DNA of 11,175 bases. It comes from Promethearchaeota archaeon (lineage in GTDB: Archaea; Asgardarchaeota; Lokiarchaeia; Sigyniarchaeales; SOKP01). A program made the position numbers and the translations under genes. Under the pieces are notes generated by a model, which made no database searches, was not told the origin of the DNA, and saw nothing but the letters and a program-made list of their open reading frames with translations. This document shows, piece by piece, positions 2,306-8,109 of the stretch. The stretch covers positions 1 through 11,175 of the forward strand of contig JAEOTP010000018.1 in the NCBI GenBank assembly GCA_016839765.1, read 5' to 3'. Numbering within the stretch: position 1 is the stretch's first letter; each line of letters opens with the position of its first letter.

Positions 2306-2995
2306 TCAAGCAATTATTTTAGATGTTTCATCTTTTTTTTCATTTTGTATGAGCCATGCTTTATATTTAAAAGTAAATTTACCTTTTATTATGGCCTTAT
2401 ATCCTGTTTCTTCCTCAAATAAAACTTGCTTTATTTCTGAATCCATCTCCTTATATGTATAATAATTTATTCTTTTTTGTATTAAGAAATAAGTTATGAA
2501 TAATCCAACGAAGATCCCAGGGATAATTATCCTTTGAACGATTTCTGGAGTATAAATAATAGTTATTAATCCAAAGATTAATACAAAAGGGATAATGCAA
2601 TAACAACAATAAAAACAGTATGAAATTCCAGAAGAACTAGTTCTTGGTTTAAGTTGTATATCTAAATTTTTATTTGCGGCATCCCTGATTAACCACCCTT
2701 TATAGGCTTTTGTTAATTTATTTTTCTTTAATGGCTCTAAACCCATCTTGTCTAAAAAGTGCTCACGGTTTAATTTTGTATCTAGCGTAATGCATGTTCT
2801 TTTAATTCTTCGCAAAACTAATAAAAATAAAAATACTAAAACCAAACCTAAAAATGATACATAAATATACCACTCAAGAGGAGGAATAATATCTAATAAA
2901 AATAACCCTAAGATAATAATTAAGAGTAGAAAACTATTTGATATGATTTTCTCAGCTTTACCTCTTAAATATAAAGAAAAAAATTCTTTTAACAT
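2306..2995 (-). CDS. Hypothetical 4-TM membrane protein made of two internal repeats
   Basis: Four hydrophobic segments (about aa 22-39, 42-61, 126-148, 156-172). The soluble motifs at aa 80-103 and 193-216 align with each other without gaps. Confidence 0.75.
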   Translation of the reverse strand: MLKEFFSLYLRGKAEKIISNSFLLLIIILGLFLLDIIPPLEWYIYVSFLGLVLVFLFLLVLRRIKRTCITLDTKLNREHFLDKMGLEPLKKNKLTKAYKGWLIRDAANKNLDIQLKPRTSSSGISYCFYCCYCIIPFVLIFGLITIIYTPEIVQRIIIPGIFVGLFITYFLIQKRINYYTYKEMDSEIKQVLFEEETGYKAIIKGKFTFKYKAWLIQNEKKDETSKIIA

Positions 2996-3078: not shown

Positions 3079-4554
3079 TTATAGTTTTTTAATAGTCGAT
3101 TGATTACTTTTTAGCTTTGGTGTGCCACACCATGGACAAAAATTTGAAGTTTCAGAAAGTTTGCTACCGCAAAAAGAACATGTTTTAGCTTCAGCTGGAG
3201 TAGTAATTTCAGAAGACCCAATACTTCTTCCTTCTATTTTACCTCCACATTTGGGACAAAAATTCGCATCGTGTTTAATATCAAAACTACAACGAGGACA
3301 TTTTCTCGCCTCAATCTTAACTTCTTCTTTAATAGCTTTAGTAGTTTTAGTAGGTTCTGCTTTTTGTTCCTTTTTCGCTTTCAAACTCATTTTCTTTTGT
3401 CCTTTTCTCGCTGCAAAAGCTATAATGATTACAATGACTATAACAACCAGAATAAATATTAGTATCCATTGGATATCCAACCATCTATCAACATAAGTAA
3501 GCCCAGTATCATAAGTAACATCGAAAGTTATGGTAGTATTTAATTCAGGTGAATTTAGTGGATCATGATAAACAAAAAAATACCATGTGCCATCATAAGG
3601 TACTATAAAGCTATCAGATATATCAATCTCTGCTTCCTGAAACGCATACGCATCACTTAAGTTGTATACACCAATAGCAGTAAAATTTACAATGAAATTA
3701 ACTGTAGGGATAAACCCTCCATCATTATACCATGTAATGTAATAAACATTCGGTGTTGATATAGATAAGGTTCCAATAGACCCATTTGTGTTGTCAATTT
3801 GCCTGTAGAAGCTAGGACTCCCCCAATTAAGCCAAATATCCATTTGATTAGCATCAGCTATGAAAAAGTCGATTGGGTTGGTGGCATTAAAATTATAGTC
3901 AATCGAAGATCCTGTATTTAAATATACCTCATAATACTGATATTCATTATATTGAAGGTAGAAAAGATCAATATAGCCTCCCATTCTAGTAGTTGTAGGA
4001 AGGTTCTCAAGCCTTTGATCCCAAATGAGAAAACTAACATAACCCGGACTTGATTGGATTGAAAAAGTTATCTCATTTCCTTCTTCAATATATTCTTCTT
4101 CAAACCAATATTCGTTAAACCCAAGAAGCTGACTGTCACGATAATTTACGATTCCAGATGAGTCCGCATTAGTGAAAGGGAACCATAGACCGACTTGAAG
4201 TAGAGGAAGCATAATTAGTCCAAATATAATGGCAAAGAAGATTCCTCCACCAATATACATGGGACTGTAATACCACGGTCTATACCAGTGTCCAGCCCAC
4301 CATGGAGAATACCACCATCTATAATACCAAGGATGATATCCCCATCGATAATACCTATAATGAGGCCGATAGTAATTATGTCTATAAGGGCCTCGTGGAG
4401 ACCTTGAAACTATTCGATTAGCACCAGTTCGACCAAAGGGCATTCCCCCGGGCCTTATTCCTCTCCCTCTAAAACTAGCAGGAGCTCCTCGAAAGCCTCC
4501 GCCTCTGAATCCTCCTCCTCGAAAGCCTCCCCTAAATCCCCCACCACGTGGCAT
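3079..4554 (-). CDS. Two-TM membrane protein: RGG/FRGG-rich N-tail, Tyr/Trp/Arg-rich segment, outer beta-rich (APD1-4/DUF4793- or GOLD-like) domain, C-terminal double zinc ribbon
   Basis: MPRGGGFRGGFRGGGFRGGGFRG at the start. TM1 about aa 101-125, TM2 about aa 361-382. Four CxxC motifs (CPRC, CPKC, CSFC, CPWC). Five N-x-S/T sequons between the TMs. SD GAGGTG at 4566-4571. Confidence 0.85.
   Translation of the reverse strand: MPRGGGFRGGFRGGGFRGGGFRGAPASFRGRGIRPGGMPFGRTGANRIVSRSPRGPYRHNYYRPHYRYYRWGYHPWYYRWWYSPWWAGHWYRPWYYSPMYIGGGIFFAIIFGLIMLPLLQVGLWFPFTNADSSGIVNYRDSQLLGFNEYWFEEEYIEEGNEITFSIQSSPGYVSFLIWDQRLENLPTTTRMGGYIDLFYLQYNEYQYYEVYLNTGSSIDYNFNATNPIDFFIADANQMDIWLNWGSPSFYRQIDNTNGSIGTLSISTPNVYYITWYNDGGFIPTVNFIVNFTAIGVYNLSDAYAFQEAEIDISDSFIVPYDGTWYFFVYHDPLNSPELNTTITFDVTYDTGLTYVDRWLDIQWILIFILVVIVIVIIIAFAARKGQKKMSLKAKKEQKAEPTKTTKAIKEEVKIEARKCPRCSFDIKHDANFCPKCGGKIEGRSIGSSEITTPAEAKTCSFCGSKLSETSNFCPWCGTPKLKSNQSTIKKL
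4485..4530. repeat. 16-nt direct repeat CTCCTCGAAAGCCTCC (4485-4500 and 4515-4530) within the FRGG-encoding tract
   Basis: Exact copy with a 30-nt (10-codon) period; encodes GGFRG units on the minus strand. Confidence 0.8.
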
Positions 4555-4556
4555 TC

Positions 4557-5564
4557 TTAATCAGGCACCTCTCTATTTTCTGTAGATCCTTTCTGTCGGA
4601 AAAAATAGTCATGATTTATTGCAGCAAGAACCAAGAGCATTGAAATAATAGACATTGTCAATCCAAGGCTATCTAATGAAACTATTGTTGTAAGGTTTGA
4701 AATTGCAAACGCAATCCCAAATAGTATCCATTCAATAACCATAAAGATTATGAACAATATTGGAAAGATGTTTCGCAATAAAAATTCAGTAGTAGTGTAT
4801 TTATTCCCGATATAACTTGAGTAAATTAGAGAAAAGAGACTAATTATGCCAAAAATCATTATTAAAACACTAAATATAATAATTGCTAACCATACAGCCC
4901 CACTTCTCGAAAAAAGGTCTAGAAATGTAACAAAATAATCTGCTCCTCTTGCTTCAAACAGATGAAAAGTTACTTTTCCATCAAACATAAAAACAATACC
5001 AAATAAACTAATTAAATCTGTTTGATTCGCAGTAAAAAAGCCGTAGATCCCTCCAAAAGGTAAGAAAACACCTAAAACGATTGCTAATATTGAACAAACA
5101 GCAGTAAACAAAAATTGAACATATCGAGTATTAGCAACTGGAAATAATCCAACCTTATCACCCTCTTTATCAGGGATAAAACTCCAACAATCTTGAATTG
5201 AGCATACACCAATTAATTTGTTATTTTCTACGACCGGTACAACATTCACTTGTAAATCACGCATCCTTGTAAAAGCTTCTGTTACAGGAGTATCTAATGA
5301 GACAGGAGATATTTTATACATCGCCGAGGTAACGTTAGTACTTTTTGGGTCTAATCCTTCTGCAATAGTATTTTGGACAATATCGAAATCTCCTATTACA
5401 CCAATTACCTGCTCTGTTCCTTCTTCAACAACAACTAAATCTGGAATGCCTAATTGTTTCATCTTTTTCGCAGCATCTTCAACTGTGGCTTTAGTGGTAA
5501 TTATGTCATATTGATCATCTATTACTAAATCCTTTACAAAATATTCCTTAGTGTATAAGTCCAT
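4557..5564 (-). CDS. CBS-pair (Bateman) domain fused to a 4-TM C-terminal membrane domain
   Basis: aa ~10-128 match two CBS repeats (ATVEDAAKKMKQLGIPDLVVVE..VIGVIGDFDIV; TPVTEAFTRMRDLQVNVVPVVENNKLIGVCSIQD). Four hydrophobic helices follow. The stop codon is 2 nt from the next ATG. Confidence 0.85.
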   Translation of the reverse strand: MDLYTKEYFVKDLVIDDQYDIITTKATVEDAAKKMKQLGIPDLVVVEEGTEQVIGVIGDFDIVQNTIAEGLDPKSTNVTSAMYKISPVSLDTPVTEAFTRMRDLQVNVVPVVENNKLIGVCSIQDCWSFIPDKEGDKVGLFPVANTRYVQFLFTAVCSILAIVLGVFLPFGGIYGFFTANQTDLISLFGIVFMFDGKVTFHLFEARGADYFVTFLDLFSRSGAVWLAIIIFSVLIMIFGIISLFSLIYSSYIGNKYTTTEFLLRNIFPILFIIFMVIEWILFGIAFAISNLTTIVSLDSLGLTMSIISMLLVLAAINHDYFFRQKGSTENREVPD

Positions 5565-5750: not shown

Positions 5751-6209
5751 TTAAAATAACTCTGTACCCTCGACCATAGTGGATGCTACGACTAATTCTT
5801 GCGCTGCTTTGGTAGCGCGCATTACTTTCGCCATGTTTCCTACTAATTTAAACTTACCTGCCATTAACCCTTGGATAGGATCGAGTTCTTTCTTTAACAC
5901 TTTTACCCAATTATCATAAGGACCTGAAAAAACAAATTCGGCACCTACTTTTTCACCTTCTTTTAACGGTCTAGGGGGTGAATTAGGAGATAACACTTCA
6001 TATTCCTCGTCGGGGGCTAAAACTTTAACTCCAGTGCAATCGCCTTTATATAATCCAATGAAAATTTTAATTTCATGATCTAAGTTTCCACTGGGTTCAA
6101 TAACAAAAATAAAATCTCCTTCCCACCACGATGCTGCTGTTTTATAATTAGGGTTACTATTTATTGCTTTCATATAAGCTTCATTCCATTCTTCTGAGAA
6201 AACTATCAT
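5751..6209 (-). CDS. SCP2 sterol/lipid-carrier domain protein
   Basis: FSEEW..AY...IN....Y..AA..W at the N-terminus and W..V....LDPIQGLMAGKFKLVGNM at the C-terminus are typical of SCP2. ATG at 6209 is preferred over the track's GTG at 6218, which sits within an SD-like AGTGA. Confidence 0.9.
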   Translation of the reverse strand: MIVFSEEWNEAYMKAINSNPNYKTAASWWEGDFIFVIEPSGNLDHEIKIFIGLYKGDCTGVKVLAPDEEYEVLSPNSPPRPLKEGEKVGAEFVFSGPYDNWVKVLKKELDPIQGLMAGKFKLVGNMAKVMRATKAAQELVVASTMVEGTELF

Positions 6210-6381
6210 ATTTTTCACTATTTATTTAATTTTTGAATATCTTCTGTTAGTATTATTTTTTATTAATACTTTTTTTTATTAATTATTTTTTTAAATTTAA
6301 TTCAAATTAAATAGTTCTAGAGGAATATTCACACTTATTTGTCAATATTTTTAAGAAAAATAAATTGTTAAAAAAGTTTTA

Positions 6382-7536
6382 TTAAACACCAATCCCGATT
6401 GTATTTCCAATACCAGCCACAATTATTTTTGACCCTTTTTCTGTACGTTTTCGTATTCCCATTTTAATCTTTTCTACAATGTTTGGTACACTTTGAGTAA
6501 TACTCCTACTTATCGTGGTGATAGCATCTTCTAAAGACTCTCTACATATCAATGCATCAATTGGAATTTCTTTTTTTGTCGAAGATTCTTCGATATAATA
6601 TTTCTCTACACCAATTCCACCAATAGCTGCTCCAACGCCTATAGCAATGGAACCACGCTTATCACCCGAAAGTTTCAAACCAGCATCAATCATTATTATT
6701 CTAGCTATATCATCTCCATGTTCTTCAATTAACTTCTTAATCGCAGTGCCTGGTTTTCCAACAGTTCCACCCGGACCCTTTGCACGAACAACATAAACAA
6801 TTCTATCTTCAAAGTTCACTTCTTGGACTATAGTATCTTTTGCAATTTCACGCGCTTTAATATCCCCATTATCAGAAACATTCCTTACAAAATTTCCAAC
6901 AACCAAGGGACCAAGGGAGTCTCCAATAGGACTACCTTCTGAAAACGCTTTAGTAGCGTGATAATATGATTTTGCCATTGAAGTAATTAAGCTCATTTGC
7001 ATCGAGATTTGCATTAGTAAAATATAGGATTTTGATTTCTTACCTAAAATTAAGTAATGCTTAACAAGCCTATATATAAAATCCACAGCCATTACTGCTT
7101 CAAGTAAGTTTTCCAAATTCTGAGCATCCGCAGAACCCTTTATTATATTTGGAGCCATTAGCGCTACTTCTTCTTTGAATCTATCATCTCTAACATCAAT
7201 AACATGATCTAACTTTGGAATAATTCCAAAAGGATCAAGTGAAACAGGAGTAATTGCAATAAAAGTTAAAAAATCTTCGAGTTTAATCATTAGATCTTTA
7301 TCAGTCTCTTTCTTATCAGCATACTTTTTAAAATTTGACAATAAAATTTGTTTACATTCATCATCCCATTCTTTAAGTTTAGTTAATCCAGTTTCAATTT
7401 CTTTCTGTGATCTCCATGCTTGAAGTTTAGTTCCATAGAACATCGAAATGAATATTAATACGAACCATAAAACTTGGATTATTAAACTAAGTGGATCTAC
7501 TTGAGTTTGACTAAATTGCATTAAATTTGAGAGCAT
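6382..7536 (-). CDS. DUF1512 family protein (N-terminal TM; C-terminal YyaC/GPR-like domain)
   Basis: Motifs PVSLDPFGIIPKL, PIGDSLGPLV, KGPGGTVGKPG, IIMIDAGLKL, GVGAAIGGIGVEKY and the C-terminal GIGNTIGIG are recognisable as archaeal DUF1512. Confidence 0.88.
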   Translation of the reverse strand: MLSNLMQFSQTQVDPLSLIIQVLWFVLIFISMFYGTKLQAWRSQKEIETGLTKLKEWDDECKQILLSNFKKYADKKETDKDLMIKLEDFLTFIAITPVSLDPFGIIPKLDHVIDVRDDRFKEEVALMAPNIIKGSADAQNLENLLEAVMAVDFIYRLVKHYLILGKKSKSYILLMQISMQMSLITSMAKSYYHATKAFSEGSPIGDSLGPLVVGNFVRNVSDNGDIKAREIAKDTIVQEVNFEDRIVYVVRAKGPGGTVGKPGTAIKKLIEEHGDDIARIIMIDAGLKLSGDKRGSIAIGVGAAIGGIGVEKYYIEESSTKKEIPIDALICRESLEDAITTISRSITQSVPNIVEKIKMGIRKRTEKGSKIIVAGIGNTIGIGV

Positions 7537-7680
7537 AATTATCCTTTATATATTTCAAGTATTAATATTTTAGAATTTTAATCTAGTAAATTTTCATAAT
7601 AACAAAATTTATTTAGTCTTATATTCTTTTCTATTATAAAGAATAGAATTAGAAGAACACAGACAGCTTAAGAGATATAT

Positions 7681-8109
7681 ATGATCGACGATGAGGATGA
7701 AGATGAGGAGATCTTAAAGAAAGGGGTCTCATTAAAAAGTGTACTAAAAAATTTACTCTTAATTCTATTAATTATAGTTGGAGTACTTTTTATTTATTTA
7801 GCCGGTGGTACCAATCAAATCACTAACTGGTTTATAGGTTTTTCATTTATATGCTTAGGTTCCACATTAATTCAAATTAAAAAACGTAAATCTGAACCAA
7901 ATTTGCAAACACTGTCTATTTTAAAATGTAATGTGTGTGGGATTACGAAAGTAAGAAATTACCAACACGGAGATTATGTTTTTAGAGAAGTAGAAACATG
8001 TAATGATTGCAATGAGTCAATGCTAATAGAGCAAATCTATAGTGTAAAATTAAAAAAACCAACAGTTGCGAAAAAAGAAGAAGAACTAAAAAGTAAAGCT
8101 AGGAAATAA
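7681..8109 (+). CDS. 2-TM protein with C-terminal zinc ribbon (archaeal DUF1512-associated type)
   Basis: Acidic N-tail DDEDEDEE, two hydrophobic helices, then CNVC...R.Y..GDYVF....CNDC...M.I..IY. Confidence 0.8.
   Translation: MIDDEDEDEEILKKGVSLKSVLKNLLLILLIIVGVLFIYLAGGTNQITNWFIGFSFICLGSTLIQIKKRKSEPNLQTLSILKCNVCGITKVRNYQHGDYVFREVETCNDCNESMLIEQIYSVKLKKPTVAKKEEELKSKARK

Follow-up and report, generated by a model that had tools for sequence, protein, structure and literature searches.

A Lokiarchaeial two-pass membrane protein with a GOLD-like outer module and its probable kinship with the eukaryotic APD1-4 family

The window analysed here, a stretch of 11,175 nucleotides of a Promethearchaeota archaeon (assembly GCA_016839765.1, contig JAEOTP010000018.1), carries an open reading frame (ORF) of 491 amino acids (aa) on the minus strand at 3079-4554. 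The question raised by this locus is whether the segment between its two predicted transmembrane (TM) helices (3481-4173, aa 128-358 of the translation) is an archaeal homologue of the luminal domain of the plant APD1-4 membrane E3 ligases, as a preliminary description had proposed. Judging from the comparisons below, the protein, called type A here, is rather probably the Lokiarchaeia/Hodarchaeales form of an Asgard two-pass membrane receptor/adaptor family that shares ancestry with eukaryotic APD1-4 proteins (DUF4792/DUF4793). Taken by its parts, the shared ancestry is held with good confidence, the receptor or adaptor role is an even bet, and with neither a catalytic nor a RING domain the protein is in all likelihood no E3. 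The feature is real, the earlier interpretation is supported in part, and the family is a credible candidate signature family.

Resemblance to APD1-4 proteins and architecture of the outer module

Among 47 homologues searched against Pfam, APD1-4_N (PF16040) was matched by 26 (best E 1.1e-6) and APD1-4_M (PF16041) by 7 (best E 0.056), and every other Pfam family was matched by one homologue only. In a HMMER search of 1.84 billion proteins with a Loki profile, the Asgard proteins were followed by eukaryotic proteins with above-cut-off APD1-4 domains, the named ones coming from Pellita, Cochliopodium, Balamuthia, Planopodium and the sponge Ephydatia (16 further members are classed as eukaryotic by similarity only), and a profile made from these eukaryotic matches retrieved the plant APD RING ligases. 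With a profile of the named eukaryotes only, the window protein ranked first of 4827 frames in its own genome (32.2 bits, E 1e-8; next 6.2), and hhalign of type A against the eukaryotic APD-like proteins gave 99.1%. In the Atlas, the best match of the structural model beyond its own cluster was an APD1-4 cluster (TM-score 0.55, 171 residues aligned over model residues 21-222), and prokaryotic Atlas rows aligned about 100-125 residues, chiefly the inner domain. The resemblance to APD1-4 is real and more than chance, but indirect, and the part clearly shared with the eukaryotic proteins is the inner GOLD domain only. The homology to the APD1-4 luminal module proposed earlier is supported by profiles and fold, with the match falling on APD1-4_N (DUF4792) and the inner GOLD and not, as had been stated, on DUF4793.

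The features of the gene, its product and the adjoining upstream gene are as follows.

3079..4554, minus strand: ORF of 491 aa, type A member of the Asgard APD-like family (276 homologues; sole match in its own genome)
4447..4554, minus strand: aa 1-36, (F)RGGG repeats, predicted cytoplasmic (sequence; kept in homologues)
4378..4446, minus strand: aa 37-59, conserved GRTGA..R..GPY.H segment (invariant columns in 53 homologues)
4255..4377, minus strand: aa 60-100, Tyr/Trp/Arg/His/Pro-rich tract (sequence; conserved)
4180..4254, minus strand: predicted TM1, about aa 101-125 (hydropathy, charge bias)
4006..4152, minus strand: outer GOLD-like sandwich, first half, about aa 135-183 (AlphaFold2 model strands 14-57)
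3664..3996, minus strand: inner GOLD domain, about aa 187-297 (p24 GOLD match; APD1-4_N match at aa 198-225)
3880..3888, minus strand: N223 sequon (kept in 109/121 homologues)
3505..3663, minus strand: outer GOLD-like sandwich, second half, about aa 298-350 (model strands 183-228)
3409..3471, minus strand: predicted TM2, about aa 362-382, with conserved W358 just before it (hydropathy; homologue alignment)
3247..3300, minus strand: zinc ribbon 1, C419-C436 (Pfam DZR, E 4e-10; invariant cysteines)
3127..3180, minus strand: zinc ribbon 2, C459-C476 (Pfam DZR; invariant cysteines)
4557..5564, minus strand: upstream partner gene of 335 aa, CBS pair and membrane helices (Pfam CBS), which stops 2 nt before the type A start codon
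4566..4571, minus strand: Shine-Dalgarno-like GAGGTG within the end of the CBS gene, 11 nt upstream of the ATG (sequence)

The motifs quoted in the preliminary description are all present (YLNTGS at aa 211, IDFFIAD at 228, IWLNWGSPS at 240, ISTPNVYYITWYN at 265, VNFIVNF...DAY at 285 and DRW at 356), and the TM - outer domain - TM layout, as in APD1-4, is borne out as a prediction by hydropathy (windows 97-128 and 355-387, flanking the outer region) and charge bias. An acidic stretch of about 235 residues lies between TM1 and TM2, and a Lys-rich linker joins TM2 to the two zinc ribbons. Charged residues amount to 18 K/R and 0 D/E in aa 1-100, 5 K/R and 32 D/E in the loop, and 13 K/R in the 35 aa past TM2, a pattern that by the positive-inside rule fits an N-in/loop-out/C-in topology with both tails cytoplasmic. 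The five sequons in the loop, earlier put forward in support of an outside location, were rejected as an argument because their number is at chance (5 observed vs 3.3 expected, p 0.22; 2.97 real vs 3.23 shuffled across 121 homologues); charge bias and the conserved N223 are the better arguments. Of the five, N223 alone is well conserved: N290 is kept in 50 of the 121 homologues, N257 in 26, N298 in 7 and N339 in 1.

The 276 homologues come from a word-indexed search; identity is 46-90% for the best 120, and most of those with a name are Promethearchaeota/Lokiarchaeota. The Atlas cluster of the window protein is all-archaeal, mostly Promethearchaeota. G37, P39, G41, R42, T43, G44, R47, G55, P56, Y57 and H59 are the invariant residues among the 53 homologues, and G/R/H/S-rich N-termini also occur in amoebozoan, sponge and further Asgard (type B, below) members. 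The eight C-terminal cysteines form two CxxC-x10-CxxC ribbons (Pfam DZR).

An AlphaFold2 model of the outer region was built on a 47-sequence alignment (predicted local distance difference test, pLDDT, 92). Model residues 66-175 (aa 187-296) form a GOLD sandwich whose top solved matches are p24 GOLD domains (5azw_B: VIA Z 13.2, root-mean-square deviation (rmsd) 1.4 Å, 87 residues aligned; Foldseek TM-score by target 0.72-0.78), and the strands on both sides of it build a second sandwich. Because these flanking halves, joined by script, match the protein's own inner domain at 97.9% (hhalign), the loop is, in the model, a GOLD inserted into a GOLD. The APD cluster is the best non-self match in the Atlas; the fold itself is GOLD-like, with p24 as the best solved matches. 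A sequence search of the PDB gave no match for the window protein, and birnavirus VP2, the top Foldseek match, was rejected as a generic sandwich (TM-score about 0.3, rmsd about 15 Å).

Two Asgard forms, their upstream gene and their distribution

A second Asgard subfamily, type B, has a G/R/H/Y tail, a TM helix, the nested module, a second TM helix and one zinc ribbon. Its members include Heimdallarchaeota LC_2 OLS20438.1, Ca. Lokiarchaeum ossiferum UYP45816.1 and Kariarchaeaceae proteins, which NCBI automatically names 'E3 ubiquitin-protein ligase APD1-4 domain-containing protein'. The type B proteins P0210 (35.2 bits) and P0216 (32.8 bits) pass the APD1-4_N gathering score, hhalign of type B against eukaryotes gave 100% (98.9% for outer against outer), and type B matched plant APD2 in the Atlas with a TM-score of 0.66 (type B model: pLDDT 95, p24 GOLD Z 13.1). 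Type B shares the whole luminal module with eukaryotes, bridging the window protein and eukaryotic APD, and the closest archaeal relatives of eukaryotic APD proteins are type B, not the window's type A. The inner domain of type A matched that of type B and eukaryotes at 99.3% (hhalign). Against the named-eukaryote profile, type B had a median score of 79 bits, type A one of 35 and the single GOLDs from outside Asgard one of 14 (one single-domain protein reached 43), with a similar order for another eukaryote profile (type A 43, single GOLDs 22).

Type A occurs in Lokiarchaeia and in one Heimdallarchaeia genus taken to be Hodarchaeales (UCG01445.1); some divergent type A proteins come from contigs without an assigned organism. 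A CBS-membrane gene lies directly upstream in 28/28 type A loci examined, and a short CBS-only gene lies upstream in 6/8 Heimdallarchaeia(-like) type B loci (5/7 plus P0216), L004 and L014 being the exceptions. The Loki type B loci have no upstream CBS gene and lie elsewhere as extra copies. For the 5 type B-upstream CBS genes tested, the window's own CBS gene was the best match in the window genome, so that A and B can be linked as positional orthologues. Given the shared CBS neighbour, tails, TM helices and inner GOLD, A and B most likely descend from one Asgard gene. In the window, the position of GAGGTG inside the end of the CBS gene suggests translational coupling of the two genes. The complex prediction for the type A protein with the CBS membrane protein reached 0.28 against a mark of 0.32 and was counted neither for nor against. 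Contigs from four L. ossiferum metatranscriptome runs, all of one study, cover the orthologue, and individual ones extend over both it and the CBS gene; these can show neither one transcript nor an expression level and were not used as evidence. A promoter/terminator scan gave results at chance level.

The eukaryote-built profile had matches in 156/400 Asgard genomes. At E 1e-12, the type B and eukaryote profile matched 95 Asgard genomes in three Lokiarchaeia families and three others, and strong matches were absent from the remaining Asgard families (6/30 listed families positive). The non-Asgard set comprised 804 archaeal genomes (301 Thermoproteota, 201 Thermoplasmatota, 151 Halobacteriota and 151 Nanoarchaeota, the phyla inferred from centre records); here the best match had 40 bits and none went past profile position 174 of 217, compared with 53 bits over positions 62-208 for the window protein with the same profile and tool. 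Scanning 251 of the Thermoproteota genomes with the type A profile led to the same result, and the Thermoproteota matches examined were single GOLD proteins. The nested two-TM form was not found in the 804 genomes, bacteria being covered only via a representative search and the Atlas. In eukaryotes, the family was found in Amoebozoa, a sponge and land plants, together with one mostly molluscan Atlas cluster, so it is present in Asgard (Lokiarchaeia, Heimdallarchaeia) and in several eukaryotic supergroups. Within what was searched, only Asgard and eukaryotes have the nested two-TM form, the GOLD-like domain as such being generic. The preliminary description would have given up the homology if the closest relatives were generic domains widespread outside Asgard, and half of this came true, single GOLD copies being widespread in non-Asgard prokaryotes.

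Several variants of the architecture were observed. The Thermoproteota proteins L157 and L160 have a single GOLD between stretches rich in Thr, Val, Glu and Lys; these may pair into a long beta-ribbon, which would be one possible way for nesting to arise. P0155 (2329 aa) has 14 matches to the inner-domain profile with a signal peptide and C-terminus resembling a bacterial surface-layer protein. P0301 (HeimC2_37200), whose locus tag adjoins HeimC2_37210 (P0267), is a paralogue of 158 aa that has the N-tail and zinc ribbon in common but lacks the whole outer module between the TM helices, indicating that the module is removable as a unit. Fusions read by eye (L009:1270-3120, L010:916-2628, P0123 and P0125) include type B with extra membrane or other C-terminal domains and type A behind TPR-like repeats or within beta-propeller-like repeats. 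L205:2356-8685 is a tandem array of four DZR-tailed genes (450-487 aa), one of them the divergent type A P0166 and the others probably paralogues.

As for the other genes of the window, a 229-aa membrane protein of no confident family is encoded at 2306-2995 (minus strand) and kept downstream in 8 related loci. At 5751-8109 lie an SCP2 sterol-transfer-like gene and a DUF1512 gene on the minus strand, together with a divergent ORF of 142 aa that is hydrophobic in its N-terminal part and has CxxC..CxxC at the C-terminal side.

Ancestry, cytoplasmic tails and competing explanations

Trees were built from the inner domain (108 columns) and are weak and unrooted. All type B and eukaryotic rows were joined in a quick tree (Shimodaira-Hasegawa-like approximate likelihood-ratio test 98), the careful tree joins them incompletely, and the best trees group type B and eukaryotes except for a few long-branch rows. 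When the longest branches were left out (62 rows), type A formed a clade (100/95) with 19/21 single GOLDs on one side (89/90) and type B with eukaryotes on the other (95/91, two stray single GOLDs inside). The trees are compatible with Asgard ancestry, without showing ancestry or direction.

A number of results weigh against an ancestry shared with APD1-4. The Pfam match borne by the homologues falls below cut-off in the window protein itself (APD1-4_N, 13.2-15.6 bits, E 0.03-0.07, gathering score 27), and the Pfam search gave it no APD1-4_M match (gathering score 25). A plant-only profile gave 8.5 bits, which is not significant, and a direct plant-to-window match was rejected; the protist and animal set is a biased one, first gathered with the Loki profile. 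The outer sandwich of the window protein matches that of type B or eukaryotes at only 0.2-5.7% (hhalign; 5.7% for the eukaryotic one, 81% for the second half with linker) and is a duplicate of its own inner domain instead, although models of A and B both show strands flanking the inner domain. Against eukaryotic profiles, the window protein (32-49 bits) is equalled by some single-GOLD proteins (up to 43-47 bits). The 108-column tree leaves groupings without support, and approximately unbiased tests reject none of 'all nested forms' (p 0.30), 'A + eukaryotes' (0.22) and 'B + eukaryotes' (0.33).

These points lend some weight to the explanation that type A is a generic prokaryotic GOLD/PPC-TM-zinc-ribbon receptor nested through its own internal duplication, with only type B related to APD and the window protein sharing just a common GOLD ancestry. 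Its outer domain matches its own inner domain and not the type B or eukaryotic one, a tree branch parts A and most single GOLDs from B and eukaryotes, and clusters with a single GOLD and a zinc ribbon exist in Acidobacteriota and Thorarchaeota. This explanation is nevertheless considered unlikely: A and Heimdallarchaeia B have in common the upstream CBS gene, the N-terminal G/R/Y/H tail, both TM helices and the zinc ribbon, the median scores of type A against the eukaryote profiles are about double those of single GOLDs, and the branch in question has no root, with A set apart from 19 of the 21 single GOLDs. Still less probable is a gene transfer from early eukaryotes to Asgard, which would leave no ancestral eukaryotic signature. 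Such transfers have been argued for other genes (PMC12395588), and the patchy Asgard spread and the intermingling of type B and eukaryotes in the tree would agree with one; that intermingling is without support, however, the single GOLD and DZR building blocks are prokaryotic, and the family exists in Lokiarchaeia and Heimdallarchaeia in two forms that have diverged deeply and whose prokaryotic operon partner is conserved.

The cytoplasmic tails bear on a role in ubiquitin signalling. Pfam and sequence gave no RING in the window protein, only the two zinc ribbons. NZF ubiquitin-binding fingers carry W, TF and N hallmarks, and an NZF was rejected for the ribbons since these are missing from the family consensus, the spacing being fitting. 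With 43 DZR matches in the genome, the double zinc ribbon is a common appendage there, and the earlier idea that it stands in for a RING proved not specific, sampled non-plant eukaryotic members also having none: RINGs were found only in plants (Pfam PF13920), and non-plant tails have few cysteines. Among 13 non-plant eukaryotic tails, PSAP/PTAP was found in 6 (0.4 expected) and PPxY/LPxY in 5 (1.4 expected), motifs of these kinds being recorded in the tails of P0194, P0235, P0237, P0281, P0285 and P0286; no PSAP/PPxY enrichment was found in type A or type B tails. PSAP/PTAP motifs bind Tsg101 of ESCRT-I (endosomal sorting complex required for transport I), and PPxY motifs bind Nedd4-type ligases, and these counts point to non-plant eukaryotic tails that recruit ESCRT-I and Nedd4-type ligases instead of carrying a RING. 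The type A orthologues of one Heimdallarchaeia genus (L187:2887-4566, L193:2609-4279 and P0129) carry, beyond the zinc ribbons, one more finger that is Cys/His-rich and RING-like, and such a tail is recorded for the Hodarchaeales orthologues P0129 and P0435.

A function of the window protein in ubiquitin signalling in Asgard, be it as a membrane E3 or as an E3/ESCRT adaptor whose ribbons would bind E2 or ubiquitin, is held to be improbable, and an E3 role is not supported. The window genome does encode ubiquitin-like and E2 proteins, including a cluster of three ubiquitin-like matches and an E2 (G000:C17:126179-130468), the plant relatives are RING E3s (PMC13210498), and the Hodarchaeales RING-like tails and the motifs of the non-plant eukaryotic tails lean the same way. 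Set against this, the window protein has neither a RING nor NZF hallmarks, the Asgard tails show no enrichment of the motifs, DZR is common in the genome, and the type A gene lies on another contig (C74) than the ubiquitin cluster (C17).

For the two-pass receptor/adaptor family with APD1-4 ancestry, the following working is proposed. The outer domain, probably glycosylated at N223, would bind a surface ligand or cargo such as a glycan, glycoprotein or lipid-anchored protein; p24 GOLD and CBM/PPC sandwiches bind such ligands in established families. The two cytoplasmic tails would recruit partners, the RGG tail may bind RNA, and the CBS protein would tie the system to the adenylate energy state. 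The ancestor would have been a surface receptor or adaptor without catalytic activity whose cytoplasmic tails could be exchanged. In Asgard it would be coupled to a CBS protein, and in eukaryotes ubiquitin/ESCRT-linked tails would have taken the place of the zinc-ribbon tail, with a RING in plants and PSAP/PPxY motifs in amoebozoan, sponge and other sampled members. More tentatively, the APD-like module could be a eukaryotic signature family, not so listed so far, that was inherited vertically from Asgard, with type A keeping the ancestral GOLD-in-GOLD duplication, type B as the direct precursor of the eukaryotic form, and a tail swap to RING (plants) or PSAP/PPxY (amoebae, animals) coupling the receptor to ubiquitin/ESCRT sorting.

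Full-text literature searches, the Eme 2023 supplements, the Kostlbacher preprint with its supplements and the main text of PMC12962969 and PMC13734099 gave no mention of APD/DUF4792/DUF4793 with Asgard; the supplements of Liu 2020/2021, Tobiasson and PMC12962969 lay outside this, so an earlier listing as a eukaryotic signature protein is possible. The family is not named as an Asgard-eukaryote link in the literature searched, and the NCBI label of type B already carries the Pfam name. New here are the division into types A and B, the CBS neighbour that these share, the controls outside Asgard, the late-domain motifs of the eukaryotic tails and accessions from cultured strains: both forms occur in cultured Ca. 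Lokiarchaeum ossiferum (UYP45408.1, type A; UYP45816.1, type B), and Promethearchaeum syntrophicum QEE15546.1 is type A. Few luminal cargo-binding endomembrane domains have traceable Asgard ancestors, and here the whole receptor layout is present in Asgard and at least three eukaryotic supergroups. The APD1-4 ligases of plants, for which no substrates are known (PMC13210498), can in this light be seen as GOLD-domain receptors that gained a RING. If the vertical inheritance proposed above is true, cultured Lokiarchaeia would give a handle on the ancestral cargo-receptor function and on the orphan plant ligases. The weight of the finding is tempered by the existing label of type B, by the window copy belonging to the more distant subfamily, and by a function that is predicted only.

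Comparison with known systems

The p24/TMED proteins are single-pass type I proteins with one GOLD, a coiled coil and a short tail. Their GOLD domains (PDB 5azw, 5gu5 and 7rrm), which are luminal or extracellular, share the inner fold of the window protein (Z 12-13, rmsd 1.4-2.2 Å, 87-102 residues) at an identity of 10-13%, and they have neither nesting nor a zinc ribbon, whereas the window protein has two TM helices, nested domains, long tails and zinc ribbons. Prokaryotic GOLD/PPC-like surface proteins (Bathyarchaeia, Thermoplasmatota and Acidobacteriota clusters) resemble the inner domain, with scores of up to about 40 bits in scans of genomes, and some end in a TM helix and zinc ribbon, but their domains are single or tandem and not nested, they have no RGG tail, and they do not match the outer halves.

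Type B resembles type A in overall layout, inner GOLD, zinc-ribbon tail and, in most Heimdallarchaeia loci examined, the upstream CBS gene; it differs in having one zinc ribbon and a diverged outer sandwich common to eukaryotes, whereas type A has two ribbons and an outer sandwich still recognisable as a GOLD repeat. Compared with the eukaryotic APD1-4 family (Arabidopsis APD1-4: Luo et al. 2012, as cited in PMC13210498 and PMC6118397), the window protein has a double zinc ribbon instead of a RING and a prokaryotic CBS operon partner, falls below the Pfam cut-offs, and has an outer sandwich not alignable by sequence. Both have two TM helices around a luminal beta module with a homologous inner GOLD, together with a cytoplasmic C-terminal zinc-binding domain in the plant proteins and a G/R/H-rich N-terminal tail in the amoebozoan and sponge members.

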